Origin: a virus
DNA: 62,124 bases
IMG/VR virus record: IMGVR_UViG_2710723518_000006
Location: 1-62,124 of that record
Direction: 5' to 3' (one strand)
Shown one piece after another: positions 3,000 to 62,124 of this stretch. The notes below the pieces were generated by a model. The model saw only the letters and a list, made by a program, of their open reading frames with translations. It was not told the origin of the DNA and did no database searches. Made by a program: the position numbers and the translations under genes. Positions within the stretch are counted from its first letter, which is position 1, and each line of letters opens with the position of its first letter.

Positions 3000-3967
3000 T
3001 CGACCAGGAAGTCACGGACAGATATGCGATTTACAACGGTGATTCTGCGGAAGTGCTGCAATCTATTCCGGATGAATCCGTAGGGTTGAGTATCTACTCC
3101 CCTCCGTTCGCGACGGAGAATGGAGGGGCACTGTACAATTACAGTTCGTCGCTCCGTGACTTGTCGAACTCGCGAACGTACAAGGAGTTTTTCGATCATT
3201 ACCGCTTTATTGTCGAGCACATTGCCCGCGTCACGAAACCCGGTCGCATCTCGGCAGTGCATTGCATGGACGTTCCGAAACAGGGAGCGAACATCTGCGG
3301 ATACTCCGACTTTCCCGGCCACATTATCGCTCTTCATGAATCGCTAGGCTTCGACTACTTACCGCGTATCTGCATATGGAAAGAACCGCTTGCCGTTCGA
3401 AATCGGACGATGGCAAAAGCTCTTGCCCATCGCCAGATCGTAGAGGATTCTACGAAGACGAACGTCGCGGCCGCCGACTACCTTATTCCGTTTCGCAAGC
3501 GAGGGGACAATCCGGAGCCGGTAGTGCATCCGACCGGACTATCTGAGTATGCCGGAGAGCGTACCGTTCCGGCCGAACTCCATCGCTATCGCAACTGGAA
3601 AGGAAACCAGATAGAGAACCGGTATTCACATTGGATTTGGCGGAACTATGCTTCGTGCTTTTGGGACGATATTCGTTTGGGTCGCGTGCTCCCCTACGAA
3701 GAGAGTAAGGACGAAGGTGACGAGCGGCATATGCACCCGTTGCAGTTGGATGTAGTGGAACGAGCAGTCATATTATGGAGCAATCCCGGCGACGTGGTAT
3801 TGACCCCATTTATGGGTGTTGGCAGCGAAGTGTACGGGGCGGTGACGGCCAGAAGAAAAGGCATCGGTATCGAACTAAAGCCATCGTTCTATCGTCAGGC
3901 AGTAAAGAATCTTCACAAAGCCGTTGAAGAGTCGTCGACCCACAAGGAGCAATTATTGTTTTCATAA
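2990..3967 (+). CDS. DNA methyltransferase, N4-cytosine/N6-adenine family (beta-class order: SPPF then FxGxG)
   Basis: SIYSPPF catalytic motif, followed late by HPLQLDVVERAVILWSNPGDVVLTPFMGVGSE. It overlaps the helicase stop by 10 nt. Confidence 0.85.
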   Translation: MAVIDQEVTDRYAIYNGDSAEVLQSIPDESVGLSIYSPPFATENGGALYNYSSSLRDLSNSRTYKEFFDHYRFIVEHIARVTKPGRISAVHCMDVPKQGANICGYSDFPGHIIALHESLGFDYLPRICIWKEPLAVRNRTMAKALAHRQIVEDSTKTNVAAADYLIPFRKRGDNPEPVVHPTGLSEYAGERTVPAELHRYRNWKGNQIENRYSHWIWRNYASCFWDDIRLGRVLPYEESKDEGDERHMHPLQLDVVERAVILWSNPGDVVLTPFMGVGSEVYGAVTARRKGIGIELKPSFYRQAVKNLHKAVEESSTHKEQLLFS

Positions 3968-3992
3968 TCCACCAACAGGAAAGGAATCCACC

Positions 3993-4172
3993 ATGTTAGT
4001 TCTCTCACGCCACACCAACGAAAAGATCATCATAGGCGACGACGTCGTTATTACGGTCGTCGAGATTCGCGGCGAAAAAGTGAAGATCGGGATTGAGGCT
4101 CCGAGGTCGACCAGCGTACATCGTGAAGAGGTCTGGCTGTCGATCCAGGGGCATCGGGAGGCGGCGGAATGA
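3993..4172 (+). CDS. csrA: Carbon storage regulator CsrA/RsmA-family RNA-binding protein
   Basis: MLVLSRHTNEKIIIGDDVVITVVEIRGEKVKIGIEAPRSTSVHREEV is collinear with the CsrA pattern MLxLxRxxxExxxIGDxxxxxVxxxxGxxVxIGIxAPxxxxxxREE. Confidence 0.85.
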   Translation: MLVLSRHTNEKIIIGDDVVITVVEIRGEKVKIGIEAPRSTSVHREEVWLSIQGHREAAE

Positions 4173-4687
4173 CGTTCGACGAACTCCTCTCCGTGGTCCC
4201 TGGATTGCGGAAAGCCAGACGACTTAATGCCGCACTACTCCGAATCCTGCTCGATCGCCGACGACGCGAATGTACATGGTGTGGCATGACGGTGCCACGT
4301 GGCCGTATCGCGTGGTGTTCAGATAAATGCGTCGCTGATTTTCGTGAACGATGCGACCCGGCGGCATCTGTTAAGGCGGTATTTCGTCGCGATAATGGCC
4401 GGTGCCGACGTTGTGGCCGTGACGTAGAAAAATCAAAACGAGTGTATGTAGCCTACCTGCGTGACTGGCCGGGCAACTGGCGATATCCAGAACAGCATAA
4501 TAAGGTAAAGGTGATGCTAGGGTTTGGTCGCGGGGGATGGTGGGAGATTGACCACACGATACCGGTATGCGAGGGTGGCGGACTGTGCACGATCGATAAT
4601 CTGCGACTGATGTGTGGGGCGTGCCATGATGATGAGACTCGGAATCTATCGCGACGACAACGGCGACAGCGGGAGTTGAGCAAATGA
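4169..4687 (+). CDS. HNH endonuclease
   Basis: ATGA overlap with csrA. Motif WEIDHTIPVCEGGGLCTIDNLRLMCGACHDDETRN plus upstream CxxC pairs. Confidence 0.8.
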   Translation: MTFDELLSVVPGLRKARRLNAALLRILLDRRRRECTWCGMTVPRGRIAWCSDKCVADFRERCDPAASVKAVFRRDNGRCRRCGRDVEKSKRVYVAYLRDWPGNWRYPEQHNKVKVMLGFGRGGWWEIDHTIPVCEGGGLCTIDNLRLMCGACHDDETRNLSRRQRRQRELSK

Positions 4688-10623: not shown

Positions 10624-11046
10624 TCGCGGCTGGGCTTGTCACGGCGAGTTGAGTCCTGTTGCGGCCGGTCCGGGCGGGGCAAGGAGAGGCGAGTTACGGC
10701 TGGCAAGTCGGGTCCTGTTGCATCACGTCCCGTAGCGTTGAGTCGTGGCAAGTCCGGATCAGGCATGGTTTCGCTGGCGTGTTCCGTCTGGTCCGGACAA
10801 GATCCGGCGGATTAAGTCGCGGTTGATCTTGGTGTGTCCATGCACGGCTGGCGAGTCGAGACTTGTCGCTGCGGGGCTGGTCCTGGTGGTTTTCGTTTTG
10901 GCACGGCTGGCATGGTCTGTCCTGTCCCGTCGGGGCAAATCATGGCTAGATGAGTTTAGGCAAGGCTGGCGTGGCCGGTTATCTCACGTCGGGGCATGAA
11001 GCGGCAAGTAAAGTCATGGCACGGTTTCCTTTTTTAGGAGTCATCA
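10624..11046 (+). repeat. Iteron-like field: at least 6 degenerate direct copies of GGCAMGGCTGGCRWGTC-type motifs
   Basis: Examples: 10842 gcacggctggcgagtc, 10900 ggcacggctggcatggtc, 10959 ggcaaggctggcgtggcc, 10697 acggctggcaagtc. All are in the same orientation. The ORFs here look non-coding. Confidence 0.7.
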
Positions 11047-11571
11047 ATGAACGACAAACGAAAAGCGATTGTCGCGAGGCTCGAAAATATCGCAGCACGA
11101 ACTGGCGGGCGGATTACTCCGTCCGCCGTCGTTGAGGACGCACGATCAGCGACAAGTCCGCTGCATGGTCTGTTTGACTGGAGCGACAAATCCGCCGCGG
11201 CGAAGCACCGGCTCGACATCGCGCGGCGGATCATTCGATCCGTTCGGGTTGAAGTCCATACGTCGATTACCGATATTTCGGTTCCGAGTTACATTCGTGA
11301 TCCGCGACTTTCGGAAAGCGAGCAGGGATACTGCCCGACGGTCAGCATCAAGGACGATGCCACGATGGCAAGCGACGTGTTGCAGCGTGAGCTAACGGCA
11401 ATGATCGGATTGCTGACACGCTCGTATGGTATCGCGGAAGTAATCGGCGTTTCGGCAGAAATGTCCACCATCCTTCACCGAACGCGGTTGCTGCGCGAGT
11501 TGCTCGTTGAGCGTGCGGCGAGTCGCAAAAACGCTGGTAAAGCGGCTTCGGCCGCGGTGCCGGCGGGGTAA
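11047..11571 (+). CDS. Hypothetical protein sitting between two iteron-like fields (candidate DNA-binding initiator or packaging protein)
   Basis: SD AGGAG then ATG at 11047: MNDKRKAIVARLENIAARTGGRITPSAVVEDARSATSPLHGLFDWSDKSAAAKHRLDIARRIIRSV. The functional guess is from position only. Confidence 0.6.
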   Translation: MNDKRKAIVARLENIAARTGGRITPSAVVEDARSATSPLHGLFDWSDKSAAAKHRLDIARRIIRSVRVEVHTSITDISVPSYIRDPRLSESEQGYCPTVSIKDDATMASDVLQRELTAMIGLLTRSYGIAEVIGVSAEMSTILHRTRLLRELLVERAASRKNAGKAASAAVPAG

Positions 11572-11574
11572 TTG

Positions 11575-12094
11575 GCGCGGCATGGCGGGGCTTGGTTGAG
11601 TCCCGTCTCGTTTTGGCGTGGCGCGGCTGGTGATGTTAGGCAAGGCGTTTCCTGGTTTGTCGCGGAGAGGCTGGCGAGTCAGTACCGGTTCTGTTTCGGC
11701 ACGGTGGGGTAAGGCACGGCTGGCTTGATTAGTCGTGTCTCGGCTCGGAGAGTTATGGCTGGCGAGTCAATCCCGGCAAGTCAGATCCGGGCGCGTCGCG
11801 TTTAGGCACGGCTGGCGAGTCCGGGCTAGTTCGGGTGCGGCATGTTGTGGCAAGGCGCTACTGGCTAGTCCCGGCATGTCCAGTATCGTCTGGTCAGGAT
11901 ATGGCACGGCTGGCGAATCACGTCTTGTTGGGGCTGGGCGGGATTTGGCAGGGCACGGATTGGCAGGCGTGGTGCGATTAGTCTAGTCGCGATAGGTCGC
12001 GGTAAGTTCTGGCAGGGCTGGTCTTGGCTGGCGTTGCAAGTTCGGGCTGGTCGGGTCTTGATATGACATGTCGCAGCAGGATAAGGCACGGTTA
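11575..12094 (+). repeat. Iteron-like field: about 10 degenerate direct copies of the same GGCACGGCTGGCGAGTC core at roughly 44-59-bp spacing
   Basis: Cores start at 11669, 11713, 11757, 11805, 11849, 11903, 11952 and 12011, plus partial copies at 11621, 11699 and 12085. Confidence 0.75.
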
Positions 12095-26282: not shown

Positions 26283-28565
26283 TTATTCCGGCGCAATCGC
26301 CATATCTTTCGACAGGTGTTCGGCTTCCGCCTCCCAGCACATGCGGAATTTCATCGTCCGATTCGTAGGCGTCTTTTTTCTGTGCAACGCCAGATAGAAA
26401 GCGATGTCGAAATCCGGCGACGTTTGCGGCGTGTTGTCGCCAGTGAAACGGTAGACGTGATTCCGCACCAGTTGGGTGCGAATTAGCGTGCAGCCGAACC
26501 CGTTGCCGTCCAGGTAGTCATAGCCCTCGCCGCGGTCGACGAAGTGGATTCGCTGGCCGGCGTCGTTCAACCGCCATGCGACGTACCCTTTGTGGAATCG
26601 CGACAGGTACGGGCCGGCCACGCTTCCCACGTCATGATCGAAGCCACGCATCAGCAGGTCGATCCCGTCGTCTGGCGGAATACAGTCGTCCTCCAGCGAC
26701 AGGACGTAAGGCGAGTCGATCGACAGCCGGATCTGTTGCCACATGTCTGCCATCGCGGTACGGACGGCCGTACCAGCCTTCTTCCGGGGTGCGTCGGCCA
26801 GATCCCGCTCGCCGACTCGCATGGCCCGTACCCGAACGTCGGGATAGCCGCACCGGATCAACCACTCCCGAACCATTGCGGAAAACTCGGCATCGTGCGA
26901 CGTATTGACCAGCAGGATAGCTACCTGCTCTCGCGGCCACGTTTGGCGGTCGAGCCACGCGGAGTACGGTCCCCACGCCCACATGCGGCCAGCAAGCGGC
27001 GTCACGATCGTCACCCGCTCATACGCCAGCCCAGCCCGGTGGTAGTAATCGGTCTGCTTGAGCACCTTGGACCGCTGTGGCTGCTCGCCTGCCAATCCGT
27101 GCTTACGATAGCGGTAGACGGTCTGCTGCTTGGCAGCCTTCCATCCGCGTTGCACGATCCGGCGCCACCAGTCCCAGTCTTCTGTAATCAGCGGATCCTC
27201 ACGGACCAGCGGGCCGATCAGGTCCAACGCCTCGCGGCGGACGATCGCCCCCGCATGGATGTAGTTGTCCCATTCGATATGGTCGGGGTCGAAGGTCGGC
27301 ATTTGCAAAATGCGCGTCTCTTCCCCAAAGCAGTGCATGTCAGAGTAAACCAGCCCTATGCCTGGGTCTTTGAACATCGCATAGCCGTTATCGAGATATG
27401 CGGCCGGCAATTCGTCGTCGGCGTCCAGGAAGCATACCAGCGGGGCCGACGTTGCGTGCAAGCCGGCCGCTCGCGCCGTCGCCACGGACCCGGCGTTGAT
27501 CCGCATGTACCGCACGCCAGCGAACGATCTGGCTACCTCCTGCGTGTTGTCCGTTGACGAATCGTCTACGACTACGATTTCATCAGGCCGGACCGATTGA
27601 TTGATTACCGATCGGATCGCGTCGCCAAGGAACCGGCCGTAGTTGTGGCAGGGGATCACGATGGCGATAGGAACATCACGGTGTCCGCGTTCGGCTATCT
27701 TCTGCCGCCGTTTTCGTGGCAATAGTTCCGTCGCGTCGAACTCTTCACCGCGGAATGAGTCCGACTTGCGCGAACCGTTCGCTTTCCATGTCGGCGATAT
27801 CGTGCTCTCTTCCCCGACGTGCTGGGCAAGGCTCGGCGTGTGGTAGTAGACGAGCCGGTGTTCGTTCTGTGCCCATGTACCAATCGCCATTTCGACGTTT
27901 CGCTTGCGGTCCCACTCGGCAATGACCTTCGCGTGAAGCAATTCCTTCGCCACGTCTGGCGGGAACACCCACGCACATGCCCCCCATAGGTTCTCGCCCC
28001 GGTTCGTGATGAACCAACCATTGCCGGTGTCGTAGGTCGCGGGCGTGTAGATGGAGCAAAGCCCGACTCGCCCCGGTGGCCAGAGCGATGCTTCCAGGTA
28101 TTGCCGAACGCAATGCGAGAATACCACGTCATCTTGAACGATCAGGTAGGCATCCGCGTTCGGTTCGCGGATCGTCATTTCCGACAGTGCCCGATGCCAG
28201 TTCTTCCAGATGCCGCGAGCGGGCGGATCGTCGCGAAACACCAGCGGGTTCCGCCAGCCGGCGGACGCCAAGGAATCGACGGTCTTGTGGAAGTAGTCCT
28301 CGCGTGTCGGAATCGTCGTGATCCCGACACACCACGTATTGACCCGCTGCTGGCCGGACACGCGGACCTCTTCAATGATCCGTTGCGACGGCGGCGGCGG
28401 AATGTTGTCCCCTGGATCGAACGGCCGGCGGTACTCGCACTTGGCGCAATGCTTGGCGGTCGTCTCCGGGAACATCGGGTGCGAGCAACTGTAGATTTCG
28501 GTTGGCGATCCGCCCTCATTGCGAAGGGCGATCAGGTCTCCGAGGTGAACGCAATGGCCGTGCAA
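26283..28565 (-). CDS. Large multi-domain glycosyltransferase (central GT2 domain plus two further GT-A-like regions, N-terminal Cys/His cluster)
   Basis: IAIVIPCHNYGRFLGDAIRSVINQSVRPDEIVVVDDSSTDNT...CFLDADDEL. The start is probably the TTG at 28565, after SD AGGGAGGG. The ORF track extends to 28721 but that stretch overlaps the capsid gene. Confidence 0.8.
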   Translation of the reverse strand: MHGHCVHLGDLIALRNEGGSPTEIYSCSHPMFPETTAKHCAKCEYRRPFDPGDNIPPPPSQRIIEEVRVSGQQRVNTWCVGITTIPTREDYFHKTVDSLASAGWRNPLVFRDDPPARGIWKNWHRALSEMTIREPNADAYLIVQDDVVFSHCVRQYLEASLWPPGRVGLCSIYTPATYDTGNGWFITNRGENLWGACAWVFPPDVAKELLHAKVIAEWDRKRNVEMAIGTWAQNEHRLVYYHTPSLAQHVGEESTISPTWKANGSRKSDSFRGEEFDATELLPRKRRQKIAERGHRDVPIAIVIPCHNYGRFLGDAIRSVINQSVRPDEIVVVDDSSTDNTQEVARSFAGVRYMRINAGSVATARAAGLHATSAPLVCFLDADDELPAAYLDNGYAMFKDPGIGLVYSDMHCFGEETRILQMPTFDPDHIEWDNYIHAGAIVRREALDLIGPLVREDPLITEDWDWWRRIVQRGWKAAKQQTVYRYRKHGLAGEQPQRSKVLKQTDYYHRAGLAYERVTIVTPLAGRMWAWGPYSAWLDRQTWPREQVAILLVNTSHDAEFSAMVREWLIRCGYPDVRVRAMRVGERDLADAPRKKAGTAVRTAMADMWQQIRLSIDSPYVLSLEDDCIPPDDGIDLLMRGFDHDVGSVAGPYLSRFHKGYVAWRLNDAGQRIHFVDRGEGYDYLDGNGFGCTLIRTQLVRNHVYRFTGDNTPQTSPDFDIAFYLALHRKKTPTNRTMKFRMCWEAEAEHLSKDMAIAPE

Positions 28566-28577
28566 GATACCCTCCCT

Positions 28578-28614
28578 AAACAAGCAAGGCCGGCCAAGTG
28601 ATTGGCCGGCCTTG
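28578..28614 (-). terminator. Intrinsic terminator-like hairpin just after the capsid gene
   Basis: Perfect 12-bp stem CAAGGCCGGCCA-agtgat-TGGCCGGCCTTG (28585-28614), followed on the transcribed strand by CUUGUUU. Confidence 0.6.
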
Positions 28615-28650
28615 CGAGGCGACGCGACGGAACAGCAGGAGGCGAACTGC

Positions 28651-29790
28651 TTACGATCCGAAAACGACCGTGCCATAGGCCGACGCATTCGGCACGTACA
28701 GGGCCGGCATGGCGTTGTCAATCGCGTACAGGACGTGGGCGGTCGGATCGTCCATCCACTTGGCGTAGCTGTACAGACCCATTTGCACGACCGGCGGACG
28801 GTTCGGACCGTCGCTGATCGGCTCGGAACCTTCGAGCATCTCGAAGACTTCGCTCGTCGGCTTCGGACCGAACCACGCCTTGTTCTCTTCGACGAACTTC
28901 GTGTAGGTCTCGGAACCAGGGGCCCCGACCTCCATGCCCTCGTCCGTGATGATCCACTCGACCCACGGTACGGCCATCAACCGGCCGCGGAACTCGTTGA
29001 TCGGCGCTCCGGCCGAATCGGTCCCGATCTGGCGTTCATAGATGTCGAACACTTTGTTGCTGGAGCCGGCCCGGTTGCGCAAGCCAGTGTTGTTCGTGAC
29101 GTAGCCCCAAATGGCTGCGTTCGTCACGACTTGCTCCAGGCGTTGGCCGCAAAGCTGTTGGAACGCGGCATTGATCGCCGACAGATCGCCGAAGATGTCG
29201 GCGGCGGCATCGTCCCAACTCGTGCCGATGATATCGCCGGCTCCCAGCATGTTGAGCTGGTCTTTGTTGCCGGCCGGCATCCGGAAGTTGATCTGCTGGC
29301 CGGTCGAATCGGTGAAAGCGTAATACCATTCGCTCCCGTTCGGGATCATATAGAGCGAATCCCGCATCATGCCAACCGTGAGCATGGTGCGGAAGTTCGC
29401 CGCCTCTTGCCCGAGGACGCGAAGCTGCTTCTTGATGTAGCTTTCGCCGGCTTCGTCGAACTCGCCGGCCGTGCCGCCGATCCGGCGAAAGTTGTGAACC
29501 TCTTCCGCCAGCAGCCAAACCGATTCGGCCATGCGGGGGAAGGTGCCGTCGACCCGGCCGACCTTCTTCCGCGTCACGCGAGCGGCCGGCGTGCCCGGAG
29601 CCGTCGCACGGCCGACCTTGCGGCTGGCGTCGAAGATATCGTAACCGAACTGGCGATGGCCGATCCGGGAGACGTTCGGTCCGCCCGGCTGGAAGCCAAA
29701 CGCATTGAGAAGGGAGGACGAAGTGGCGGCGACGCGCTGGACGACTTTCGTCGTTACTTCTGCCCTCAGGAGGGTGTCGATGGAAGCCAT
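28651..29790 (-). CDS. Major capsid protein (lambda gpE-like by context)
   Basis: 379 aa, directly after a gpD-like decoration gene and followed by a terminator. The family assignment is from memory, not from a search. Confidence 0.75.
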   Translation of the reverse strand: MASIDTLLRAEVTTKVVQRVAATSSSLLNAFGFQPGGPNVSRIGHRQFGYDIFDASRKVGRATAPGTPAARVTRKKVGRVDGTFPRMAESVWLLAEEVHNFRRIGGTAGEFDEAGESYIKKQLRVLGQEAANFRTMLTVGMMRDSLYMIPNGSEWYYAFTDSTGQQINFRMPAGNKDQLNMLGAGDIIGTSWDDAAADIFGDLSAINAAFQQLCGQRLEQVVTNAAIWGYVTNNTGLRNRAGSSNKVFDIYERQIGTDSAGAPINEFRGRLMAVPWVEWIITDEGMEVGAPGSETYTKFVEENKAWFGPKPTSEVFEMLEGSEPISDGPNRPPVVQMGLYSYAKWMDDPTAHVLYAIDNAMPALYVPNASAYGTVVFGS

Positions 29791-29916
29791 TGTATTCTCA
29801 CCACAACACCCCCGCTCCGGTGGCTTCCGCGTATACTGATCGGTCAGCCTGTCGCGGTAACAGGTTTTCGGGAGCTACCCTAGACCGATAGTTTCCAAAG
29901 CTCCAAACTCCGCCGC
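29791..29916 (-). promoter_or_regulatory. Structured leader upstream of the capsid gene (copy 2 of a duplicated element)
   Basis: The minus strand reads CTAGGGTAGCTCCCG-aaaa-CCTGT-taccgcg-ACAGG-N15-ACGCGGAAGCC...GTGAGAATacaATG. Confidence 0.55.
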
Positions 29917-30696
29917 TTACGTGGCGGTCGTGATCGTGTTGCCCGGCGACAGATTGCGAACGTACCACTTCGTGCCGGCATCGTTCGAATGAACGATGAC
30001 GTGCCCGCCGATCTTCTGGCTGCCGGTGGAAAACGCGATCGAATCGGCCGATGCGTCGTTGATCGAAACCATGTCGTCACCGGCCGCGCTGGCAACCGTC
30101 ATGTTGAAGTCAACGACGTTGAGAAACTCGAACATCAGGCCGCGGGCGATCGTCGGCAACGTGAAGACGACGTTGCCGGCCGCCGCGGTGGTGGTGAACA
30201 GCGTGCCGTTGTCGGCCGCGACCACGGAGTAGTCGGCCGTCTTCGCGACTTCTTTGAGCGGACCGCCAAGGAACTGACGGCCCGGCAGGTCATCGTCGAA
30301 AAGGAAGTTGTTGGCAAGCTGGCGACGCGCCAGGCTGTCGAGGCCGATCAAGTTCGCGGCCTTGATCGGCCCGCCAACCGCAATCGGCATCAAGCGATTC
30401 TGGTTGTTGCCGTCGATGTCGGTCGCCCGGCATTCGAGCAACGCGATCGCTCGCGCGACCGCCGTGCCGTCCGTCGCGGTCGGACTGTACTGAGCGTACA
30501 GGTTGCTGGCCGTGATGAGGCCGAGCACCAGGCCTGGACGCAGGACAGTCGTTGGCGAATTGGCGGTATCGCGGGCCGCGCCGGAAATCAACCCGTTATG
30601 CAGGTGCCGCAGTTCCAGCGGACCCCAAAAAATCTCGGCTTCCGAGTTTTCGCGGGCGGTCGTGAAGCCCGGTACGGCGAATCCCATTTGGCTCAT
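29917..30696 (-). CDS. Head decoration protein (lambda gpD-like N-terminal domain plus C-terminal extension); C-terminus ...NTITTAT
   Basis: GLVLGLITASNLYAQYSPTATDGTAVARAIALLE... resembles the gpD family. The position next to the capsid gene fits. Confidence 0.65.
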   Translation of the reverse strand: MSQMGFAVPGFTTARENSEAEIFWGPLELRHLHNGLISGAARDTANSPTTVLRPGLVLGLITASNLYAQYSPTATDGTAVARAIALLECRATDIDGNNQNRLMPIAVGGPIKAANLIGLDSLARRQLANNFLFDDDLPGRQFLGGPLKEVAKTADYSVVAADNGTLFTTTAAAGNVVFTLPTIARGLMFEFLNVVDFNMTVASAAGDDMVSINDASADSIAFSTGSQKIGGHVIVHSNDAGTKWYVRNLSPGNTITTAT

Positions 30697-30809
30697 GTTT
30701 CATTCTCACGAGCCTCCCCGCGAAAGGCTTCCGCGTGTGTTGTGTGCGGCTGACGGACGCGGTTGCCGTCTGGTCGGGAGCTACCCTAGCCGCACGTTCG
30801 ATGATCGTC
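30697..30809 (-). promoter_or_regulatory. Structured leader upstream of the decoration gene (copy 1 of a duplicated element)
   Basis: The minus strand reads CTAGGGTAGCTCCCG-acca-GACGG-caaccgcgt-CCGTC-N15-ACGCGGAAGCC...GTGAGAATgaaacATG. Confidence 0.55.
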
Positions 30810-32432: not shown

Positions 32433-32545
32433 AAGGCCAATTAGATGCGGTGTATTTCAAAAAAACCGCCTATTATGGAAAAAAATCGGCGGGTCGCTCC
32501 CGCGTCTCCTGTGCCCGTCGCGGTCGGGCCGGTCACGTTGCACAC

Positions 32546-61800: not shown

Positions 61801-62124
61801 TGGCTGCGTCCTTTTTTGATCGTCTCCCACTCCGCGTCGGTCAGGGCGCAGAGGATGTGCCCCGGCCCGCCAAGTGCGGCTGGCGAGAGGATTGCGCCGT
61901 CGATGTTAGCACCGCACCAGGAGCAAGCAATCAGCGACGCTCCGTTCAGCGACGCATCGTCCAGCGACGCTCCGTCCAGCGACGCTCCGTTCAGCGACGC
62001 TCCGTTCAGCGACGCTCCGTCCAGCGACGCATCGTCCAGCGACGCATCGTCCAGCGACGCTCGCCTCAGCGACGCTCGCCTCAGCGACGCTCCGTTCAGC
62101 GACGCTCCGTTCAGCGACGCTCCG
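61797..62124 (-). CDS. Pentapeptide-repeat protein, C-terminal part (enters from the window end; stop 61797-61799)
   Basis: ...ASLNGASLDDASLIACSWCGANIDGAILSPAALGGPGHILCALTDAEWETIKKGRSQ*. The frame is continuous with 1-380 once the 84-bp overlap is merged. Confidence 0.85.
   Translation of the reverse strand, partial: GASLNGASLNGASLRRASLRRASLDDASLDDASLDGASLNGASLNGASLDGASLDDASLNGASLIACSWCGANIDGAILSPAALGGPGHILCALTDAEWETIKKGRSQ
61936..62124. repeat. 15-bp tandem repeat array, 12.6 units; the last 84 nt duplicate nt 1-84
   Basis: Same four unit types as 1-240. 62041-62124 is identical to 1-84. Confidence 0.97.

Follow-up and report, generated by a model that had tools for sequence, protein, structure and literature searches.

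Paired int-alpA-type RNA leaders before the decoration and major capsid genes of a planctomycete phage

Introduction

The int-alpA RNA motif (Rfam RF02996), reported in the supplement of Weinberg et al. (2017, NAR 45:10811, PMC5737381), is a catalogued orphan family that carries a small RNA (sRNA) label and has no described function. Its members share a three-way junction of helices P1, P1a and P2 with the conserved nucleotides C-UA-G(P1a)C-GAAAA-(P2)-CUG, a pseudoknot in which the P2 loop pairs with the 3′ tail, and a phage or mobile-element setting. Here we describe two copies of an element of this kind in the IMG/VR virus record IMGVR_UViG_2710723518_000006 (positions 1 to 62,124; this whole stretch of 62,124 nucleotides (nt) is referred to as the window), where they precede the head decoration gene and the major capsid gene. 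The window copies have the same junction, pseudoknot and setting, but they differ from described int-alpA RNAs in host group (phages of Planctomycetota, as placed by prophage relatives, instead of Proteobacteria), in gene context (capsid and decoration genes instead of int or alpA neighbours), in an A/C-rich rather than U-rich linker, and in the 30–36 nt, compared with ~20, that follow the first pseudoknot partner (site 1). This longer stretch places the Shine-Dalgarno (SD) sequence of the window copies outside the downstream hairpin P4. Both copies are additions to a known, functionally undescribed family, which they extend to a new host group, the Planctomycetota phages, and to a new gene context, late structural genes.

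Together with a survey of viral contigs, these copies indicate that the element behaves as a leader tied to the downstream start codon, and that two partners compete for its P2 loop. For a widespread phage RNA, this provides a concrete model that can be tested by mutation, together with a natural system in which matched copies stand before two genes needed in equal numbers. If the proposed translational switch is wrong, a clean annotation of two structured RNAs still stands.

Two leaders in a head operon belong to the int-alpA family

Two gaps on the minus strand, 30809-30697 between a 540-amino-acid (aa) gene and the decoration gene and 29916-29791 between the decoration and capsid genes, each contain one leader (copy 1 and copy 2, respectively). 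The 15-mer CTAGGGTAGCTCCCG occurs exactly at 30775-30789 and 29869-29883, ACGCGGAAGCC at 30726-30736 and 29822-29832, and GTGAGAAT at 30702-30709 and 29794-29801, 3–5 nt ahead of each ATG. The 5-bp hairpins of the two copies have different stems (GACGG/CCGTC vs. CCTGT/ACAGG), with ACCGCG within both loops. All of these blocks lie on the minus strand where the original prediction, made by a model from the letters of the window, had placed a duplicated structured leader. The leaders are intercistronic, 14–29 nt past a stop codon and inside an operon; neither gap contains a sigma-70-like promoter, and the copies have no promoter-like or terminator-like signal of their own. No third copy of CTAGGGTAGCTCCCG was found anywhere in the window with up to three mismatches allowed. 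Taken alone, a single repetition of a 15-mer within 62 kb is not significant.

Copy 2 (29823-29890) matches RF02996 with 37.2 bits (E 8.5e-6), above the gathering score of 35.8; it was detected in a local scan with laxer filters, while a whole-window Rfam scan in gathering mode, with its speed filters, found nothing. Copy 1 (30743-30798) stays below the threshold and was not reported in a 151-nt scan even at E up to 10. It has GACCA in place of GAAAA, a single-base J3, and A-G in place of CUG, while UA is kept. Copy 1 is nevertheless a divergent int-alpA member, because an independent covariance model (R2), built from 20 sequences of other phages and none from the window, assigns it 36.1 bits. 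Run over the entire window without filters, R2 scored copy 2 at 41.0 bits (E 1.2e-8), copy 1 at 36.1 bits (E 2.4e-7), and the next best position at 12.9 bits. This gap indicates exactly two copies in the window, so the original statement that no others could be found by eye holds under an exhaustive search. R2 replaced an earlier, weak model (R1, from a hand alignment padded with N), whose false matches in L280, L221, and L165 were discarded by inspection.

Further tests of family membership agree. The relative L313 scores 39.5 bits against RF02996 and L187 scores 23.6, and when 12 IMG/VR contigs with the same core were tested against Rfam, 10 were confirmed, all with 39–50 bits. The three-way junction P1/P1a/P2 is supported by covariation, with the E. 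coli members of the family in the same alignment columns, and the junction nucleotides UA, GAAAA, and CUG are all present in copy 2. The pairing between the P2 loop and the segment 3′ of P1 (CCuU...aAgG in the Rfam consensus) takes the form CCGCG(U)/(A)CGCGG in both copies and covaries over 15 copies. The integrase/alpA neighbourhood, which is the source of the family name and not a structural criterion, is absent, the neighbours here being the 540-aa, decoration, and capsid genes. We are highly confident of the identity as int-alpA and of the fold.

Other structured RNAs were considered and set aside. A three-way junction with GAAA recalls the hammerhead ribozyme, but only UA separates P1 from P1a, CUGANGA is missing in any rotation, and there is no Rfam match. 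No Rfam riboswitch model matched in the window scan or the local scan. The guanidine-I/ykkC riboswitch has the core CUAGGGUUCCG, and the string CUAGGGU at a junction is common to both RNAs; in int-alpA, however, the GGG is one strand of a variable helix (GccC in the Rfam consensus; GCGC and GCCC in E. coli). No Rfam ykkC match was obtained at E up to 10, and we regard the similarity as coincidental.

All four helices covary

From 5′ to 3′, the three-way junction runs P1, UA, P1a, GAAAA, P2, CU(G), and the 3′ strand of P1. P1 is the outer helix that encloses the element, with 7 bp in the window copies and 5–8 bp among relatives. P1a is formed by the GGG and CCC within the 15-mer, which pair mutually, and 1–4 nt separate P2 from the 3′ strand of P1 among relatives. 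The loop of P2 (L2) forms the pseudoknot with site 1, located 6–7 nt past P1 in the window and a few nt past P1 in relatives. The original prediction had the P2 hairpin and the pseudoknot right, but missed the outer helix P1, P1a, and the known Rfam family. Its proposed pairing of GCTCC(C) with the SD does not survive: the CCC pairs locally with GGG in the covarying P1a, and CUCC is missing in 5 of the 13 copies of planctomycete-phage type as well as in the two E. coli copies.

P1, P1a, P2, and the pseudoknot all covary across relatives. In a structure-fitted hand alignment of 15 copies, each checked against its source sequence, 97.8% of cells are paired, compared with 36–50% when the partner strand is slid by 1–3 columns, and compensatory changes occur in 23 of 26 pairs. 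A model-based alignment of 80 distinct viral copies among the matches listed gives 85.6% paired cells, with compensatory changes at 17 of 18 pairs. P1a varies as GGGUG/CACCC, GGA/UCC, and AGGG/CCCU. Compensatory changes across relatives bear out the covariation that had been noticed in the P2 stems, as they do the suggested CCGCG–CGCGG pseudoknot, which appears in relatives as CCCCG/CGGGG, CCACG/CGUGG, UCCGCU/AGCGGG, GUGCGU/ACGCAC, and ACCUUA/UAAGGU. Pairing of each loop with its own downstream region is specific relative to the downstream regions of other copies (0 of 20,000 permutations attained the observed value). These compensatory changes, along with G-U pairs that occur on the gene strand only, indicate an RNA rather than a DNA element. 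In addition, minimum free energy (MFE) folding regains P1, P1a, and P2 in both window copies, with z = -2.9 for copy 1.

Distribution among capsid relatives and viral contigs

Relatives of the capsid protein were gathered from metagenomes, genomes, and viral contigs; a single-protein capsid search of viral contigs returned nothing, while a profile search succeeded. Prophage relatives put the host in Planctomycetota, mostly Pirellulaceae. About eleven distinct relatives have the element directly 5′ of the capsid gene, and one (L210) has it 5′ of the decoration gene instead. L120, the closest relative, and L313 (61% and 53% capsid identity, respectively) carry it before the capsid gene only, and L313 retains ACCGCG/CGCGG. 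Other close relatives, with 50–56% capsid identity, (L310–L312 and L123–L126) have short gaps without the element. The distribution among relatives is therefore patchy. In the gap before the decoration gene of L120 (2996-3100), an 8-bp helix GCATTGTC...GACAATGC surrounds an inner hairpin and there is no int-alpA copy. In many Pirellulaceae prophage relatives (L158, L163, L207, L215, L217, L218, and others), short tandem or inverted repeats such as AATGACC and CTTGAAC replace the leader in the decoration and capsid gaps.

Beyond these relatives, the 18-nt core CUAGGGUNGCUCCCGAAA is identical in at least 120 viral contigs, nearly all of which, among those listed, show the full architecture. The leaders of these contigs span AT-rich to GC-rich sequences, and the helices drift freely around the core. 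Because 119 IMG/VR matches to the 15-mer are without the downstream blocks of the window, we considered whether they were chance matches; this was rejected, since the blocks are lineage-specific and the matches are genuine members.

In one IMG/VR lineage (L018 3507-4108, and also L002 and L027), the leader lies 3–15 nt after an array of 4–5 tRNA genes on the same strand. A tRNA-like or RNase P-related role was discarded, as this adjacency is confined to that phage lineage. One viral contig with an int-alpA leader (L001) also bears an Rfam GP20-b RNA (RF03003, 50.6 bits) at 4621-4676.

Two copies were found on E. coli chromosomes (L314 5994-6084 and L315 5996-6084), in satellite-like islands that bear an integrase. 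They begin 8 nt past the integrase stop codon and end ~22 nt before the next start on the same strand, so that the E. coli members are also intercistronic leaders, and a U-rich run follows P1. The gene 3′ of these copies encodes an unannotated protein of 293–317 aa between the integrase and a helix-turn-helix (HTH) regulator; these proteins have no match in Pfam, PHROGs, or PADLOC.

Matched copies in the window and other duplications

Between the two window copies, there is no difference in the junction plus P1a (15/15), in L2, in site 1 plus AAGCC (11/11), or in the SD block (8/8), whereas hardly any base of P1 and P2 is shared. Four other phages (L013, L040, L071, and L024) carry two int-alpA leaders each, before consecutive or nearby genes; in L013 (1638-1693 and 2153-2207), the downstream genes encode an HNH endonuclease and, next, a replication protein. 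Unlike in the window, L2 and its sites differ between the two copies of each of these phages. The common set of L2 and sites in the window may point to joint control, or may be no more than the result of slower change, as L2 has to co-evolve with two partners.

A possible translational switch

The element is invariably located on the strand of the downstream gene, and its distance to that gene is narrowly constrained: 98–107 nt separate P1 from the start codon in 11 of 13 planctomycete-phage copies, and the distance from CUAG to the start codon peaks at 72–86 nt across 120 viral copies among the matches listed. This fixed distance fits the translational role that had been proposed for the leader. 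The downstream genes of the listed copies are diverse, encoding DUF1376 proteins, HTH replication proteins, endonuclease VII and HNH endonucleases, and helicases, which suggests a portable leader and not the partner of one protein family.

Among the matches listed, L2 also has more than one complementary partner. At least two separate L2-complementary sites are present in 57% of 105 copies, vs. 6% when loops are swapped between copies. The first site starts ~9.5 nt past P1 and is separated from the second by ~8 nt. A median of 6 nt lies between the end of the second site and the start codon, which puts this site at the SD position, and 42 of 57 second sites are predicted to fall in a hairpin loop, that of P4. 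L2 pairing energies are about equal for the proximal and distal halves of the leader. For the window, the L2 duplex of copy 1 was calculated at -10.5 kcal/mol with the site 1 region vs. -9.7 kcal/mol with the rest of the leader, and that of copy 2 at -9.0 vs. -8.1 kcal/mol.

We propose that the leader may control translation initiation in cis by means of a three-part toggle. L2 would be the ‘anti’ sequence and site 1 a decoy, such that the L2–site 1 pseudoknot would free the ribosome-binding region. Site 2, in the P4 loop beside or overlapping the SD, would hinder 30S binding when paired with L2. The near-invariant junction nucleotides would decide the winning pairing, either through their own tertiary fold or through a putative, widely conserved bound factor. 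With the same junction, L2 (ACCGCG), site 1 (CGCGG), and SD block in front of both genes, a joint response would be expected of the decoration and capsid proteins, two shell proteins required in equal numbers.

This arrangement resembles SD/anti-SD/anti-anti-SD expression platforms, in that L2 would alternate between two downstream segments of similar pairing energy, one of them at the ribosome-binding site. In int-alpA, however, the ‘anti’ segment is a hairpin loop and both alternatives are tertiary (a pseudoknot or a loop–loop kiss) and not competing hairpins. The likeness is limited to function, and we do not claim membership; a trigger or ligand is known for none of the int-alpA RNAs.

Several points weigh against the proposal. 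The working SD (GGAG, here GUGAGAAU) of the window and its planctomycete-phage relatives follows site 2 at a distance of 10–20 nt, and since it is 3′ of P4 in this clade, any blocking would be steric and not direct. Site 2 of copy 2 is only 4 bp. CGCG is self-complementary, and sites 1 and 2 of copy 1 can pair together; P4 of the same copy is in competition with a predicted hairpin in which the ATG is buried, and the MFE prediction favours a different local fold. The hand alignment, having been fitted to the structure, is biased towards it. The Rfam type of int-alpA is ‘Gene; sRNA’ and not cis-regulator, the highly diverse downstream genes provide no common physiological signal that would hint at a ligand, and a literature search on the family name, accession, and core sequence found no functional study of int-alpA. 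On balance, we hold the full statement, that these are int-alpA-class leaders acting in cis on translation initiation by the mechanism above, at close to but short of an even chance; the switch itself, as predicted from pairing potential, is plausible but somewhat less likely than not.

Alternative explanations

The alternative that survives best is a processing or stability element of the mRNA, in which the compact fold of junction and pseudoknot would be a nuclease target, or a 5′ roadblock after upstream cleavage; in either case, the decoration and capsid messages would last longer than the remainder of the operon. The intercistronic position agrees with this, as an open reading frame on the same strand ends 2–27 nt before P1 in about half of the viral copies among the matches listed, and so do the tRNA arrays immediately upstream in one phage lineage, which form a processing context. 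In the window, the leaders precede the two most abundant virion proteins and strong hairpins flank the operon. Such a role leaves unexplained, however, both the match of L2 to two downstream sites, one of them at the SD, and the tight spacing to the start codon. Most members precede low-abundance genes (replication proteins and HNH endonucleases), and the tRNA adjacency is limited to its single lineage. We consider this explanation unlikely, though it deserves to be weighed. Coupling to upstream termination was rejected, because the spacing from stop codon to P1 is too variable (2 to >300 nt).

A second possibility would extend the translational switch rather than replace it. In a sensor RNA, riboswitch-like or protein-binding, the C-UA-G, UAGCU loop, GAAAA, and CUG, all conserved across phyla, may bind a universal small molecule or host component (e.g. 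a part of the ribosome) and so decide the fate of the pseudoknot. The identity of the 18-nt core across viral leaders of such different base composition, the free variation of the helices around it, and the two-state layout of an expression platform speak for this idea. Tertiary folding alone could, on the other hand, account for the strong conservation, the downstream genes lack a common metabolic theme, and no known riboswitch family matches; a sensor is thus rather improbable. We give the same low weight to the broadest version, in which int-alpA RNAs would be a portable, factor-responsive translational switch across the phages of many phyla, with a universal ligand or host component bound to the core choosing the ‘on’ pseudoknot (L2–site 1) or the ‘off’ kiss (L2–site 2), and with the two window copies gating decoration and capsid jointly.

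The window encodes a CsrA homologue (3906-4169, plus strand; E 9e-16 vs. E. coli CsrA; phrog_9500, E 3e-20), with homology that begins at about residue 30 of the open frame, and the leaders had been suggested as its target. A CsrA dimer might bridge the GGA of ACGCGGAAGCC and the GGA of the G-rich tract, two triplets 10–19 nt apart in both leaders, and repress both shell genes. CsrA-regulated leaders have conserved GGA, typically in hairpin loops and overlapping the SD, but the downstream block reads GGGCAAAC, GCGGUUAG, or GGGGCAAAC in relatives, so that GGA is not conserved and is absent from the equivalent block in L133, L137, L313, and L120. GGA is in any case expected in purine-rich SD regions, the covarying pairs of L2 and its sites indicate RNA–RNA recognition and not a protein motif, and the family is widespread in viral contigs, with AT-rich to GC-rich leaders, and in phages of many unrelated hosts. 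The suggested link to CsrA therefore finds little in its favour, and such a target is very unlikely. Least probable of all is a trans-acting sRNA, for which the Rfam type and the U-rich run after P1 in E. coli speak, or a DNA-level site (a late promoter, operator, or recombination site), for which the conservation of the 15-mer as DNA speaks, since the window copies lack promoter-like and terminator-like signals, lie inside an operon shortly past a stop codon, with a constant spacing to the next start, and show the compensatory changes and one-strand G-U pairs that favour RNA.

Features of the operon and other observations in the window

The coordinates of both leaders and of the surrounding features are given in Table 1.

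Table 1. Leader elements and neighbouring features on the minus strand of the window.
Feature	Position	Strand	Evidence or remarks
int-alpA-type leader copy 1, P1 5′ strand to decoration-gene ATG, 102 nt	30694-30795	-	model R2 36.1 bits, E 2.4e-7; MFE fold
Copy 1 P1 5′ strand GTGCGGC, partner GCCGCAC 30744-30750	30789-30795	-	sequence, comparison
Copy 1 P1a hairpin GGG-UAGCU-CCC	30776-30786	-	5′ junction UA 30787-30788, 3′ junction GACCA 30771-30775
Copy 1 P2 hairpin GACGG-CAACCGCGU-CCGUC; loop L2 30757-30765	30752-30770	-	sequence, comparison
Copy 1 site 1 ACGCGG, pseudoknot partner of L2 CCGCGU	30731-30736	-	comparison, duplex energies
Copy 1 candidate P4 hairpin AGCCU-UUCGCGGGG-AGGCU; site 2 CGCGG 30718-30722 in loop	30711-30729	-	inspection
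Copy 1 SD-like purine block GUGAGAAU, 5 nt ahead of ATG	30702-30709	-	aligns with GGAGA(A)UGA of relatives
int-alpA-type leader copy 2, P1 5′ strand to capsid-gene ATG, 102 nt	29788-29889	-	Rfam RF02996 37.2 bits; model R2 41.0 bits, E 1.2e-8; MFE fold
Copy 2 P1 5′ strand ATCGGTC, partner GACCGAT 29839-29845	29883-29889	-	sequence, Rfam, comparison
Copy 2 P1a hairpin GGG-UAGCU-CCC; junctions UA 29881-29882, GAAAA 29865-29869	29870-29880	-	sequence, Rfam, comparison
Copy 2 P2 hairpin CCUGU-UACCGCG-ACAGG; L2 29853-29859; junction CU 29846-29847	29848-29864	-	sequence, Rfam, comparison
Copy 2 site 1 CGCGG, pseudoknot partner of L2 CCGCG	29827-29831	-	comparison, duplex energies
Copy 2 weaker site 2 GCGG, in G-rich tract	29812-29815	-	inspection
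Copy 2 SD-like block GUGAGAAU, 3 nt ahead of ATG	29794-29801	-	sequence
Head decoration gene, lambda gpD-like, 259 aa, 3′ of copy 1	29917-30696	-	PF02924, phrog_49/3583
Major capsid gene, lambda gpE-like, 379 aa, 3′ of copy 2	28651-29790	-	PF03864, phrog_29; 287 homologues
Terminator-like hairpin, 14-bp stem, directly 3′ of capsid gene	28584-28615	-	hairpin scan
Second terminator-like hairpin, just upstream of 540-aa gene	32489-32503	-	hairpin scan

The two terminator-like hairpins flank a three-gene unit that consists of the gene for the 540-aa protein, which has no family assignment, and of the decoration and capsid genes. A family-2 glycosyltransferase gene (PF00535, 760–812 aa) is located at 26283-28721 on the minus strand, between the major capsid gene and a Mu gp36-like head gene. 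It appears to have been inserted into the head module, because the capsid gene of L120 directly precedes the gp36-like gene.

A 15-nt tandem repeat, CGTTCAGCGACGCTC, is present at both ends of the window, at 8-239 (~15.5 copies) and 61931-62124 (~12.9 copies). The contig probably represents a genome, either circular or with terminal redundancy, opened inside one CGTTCAGCGACGCTC repeat array. Finally, at least six imperfect direct repeats starting with GGCACGGCTGGC occur in two clusters at 10841-12058, with a spacing of ~49–59 nt and an iteron-like or origin-like appearance.

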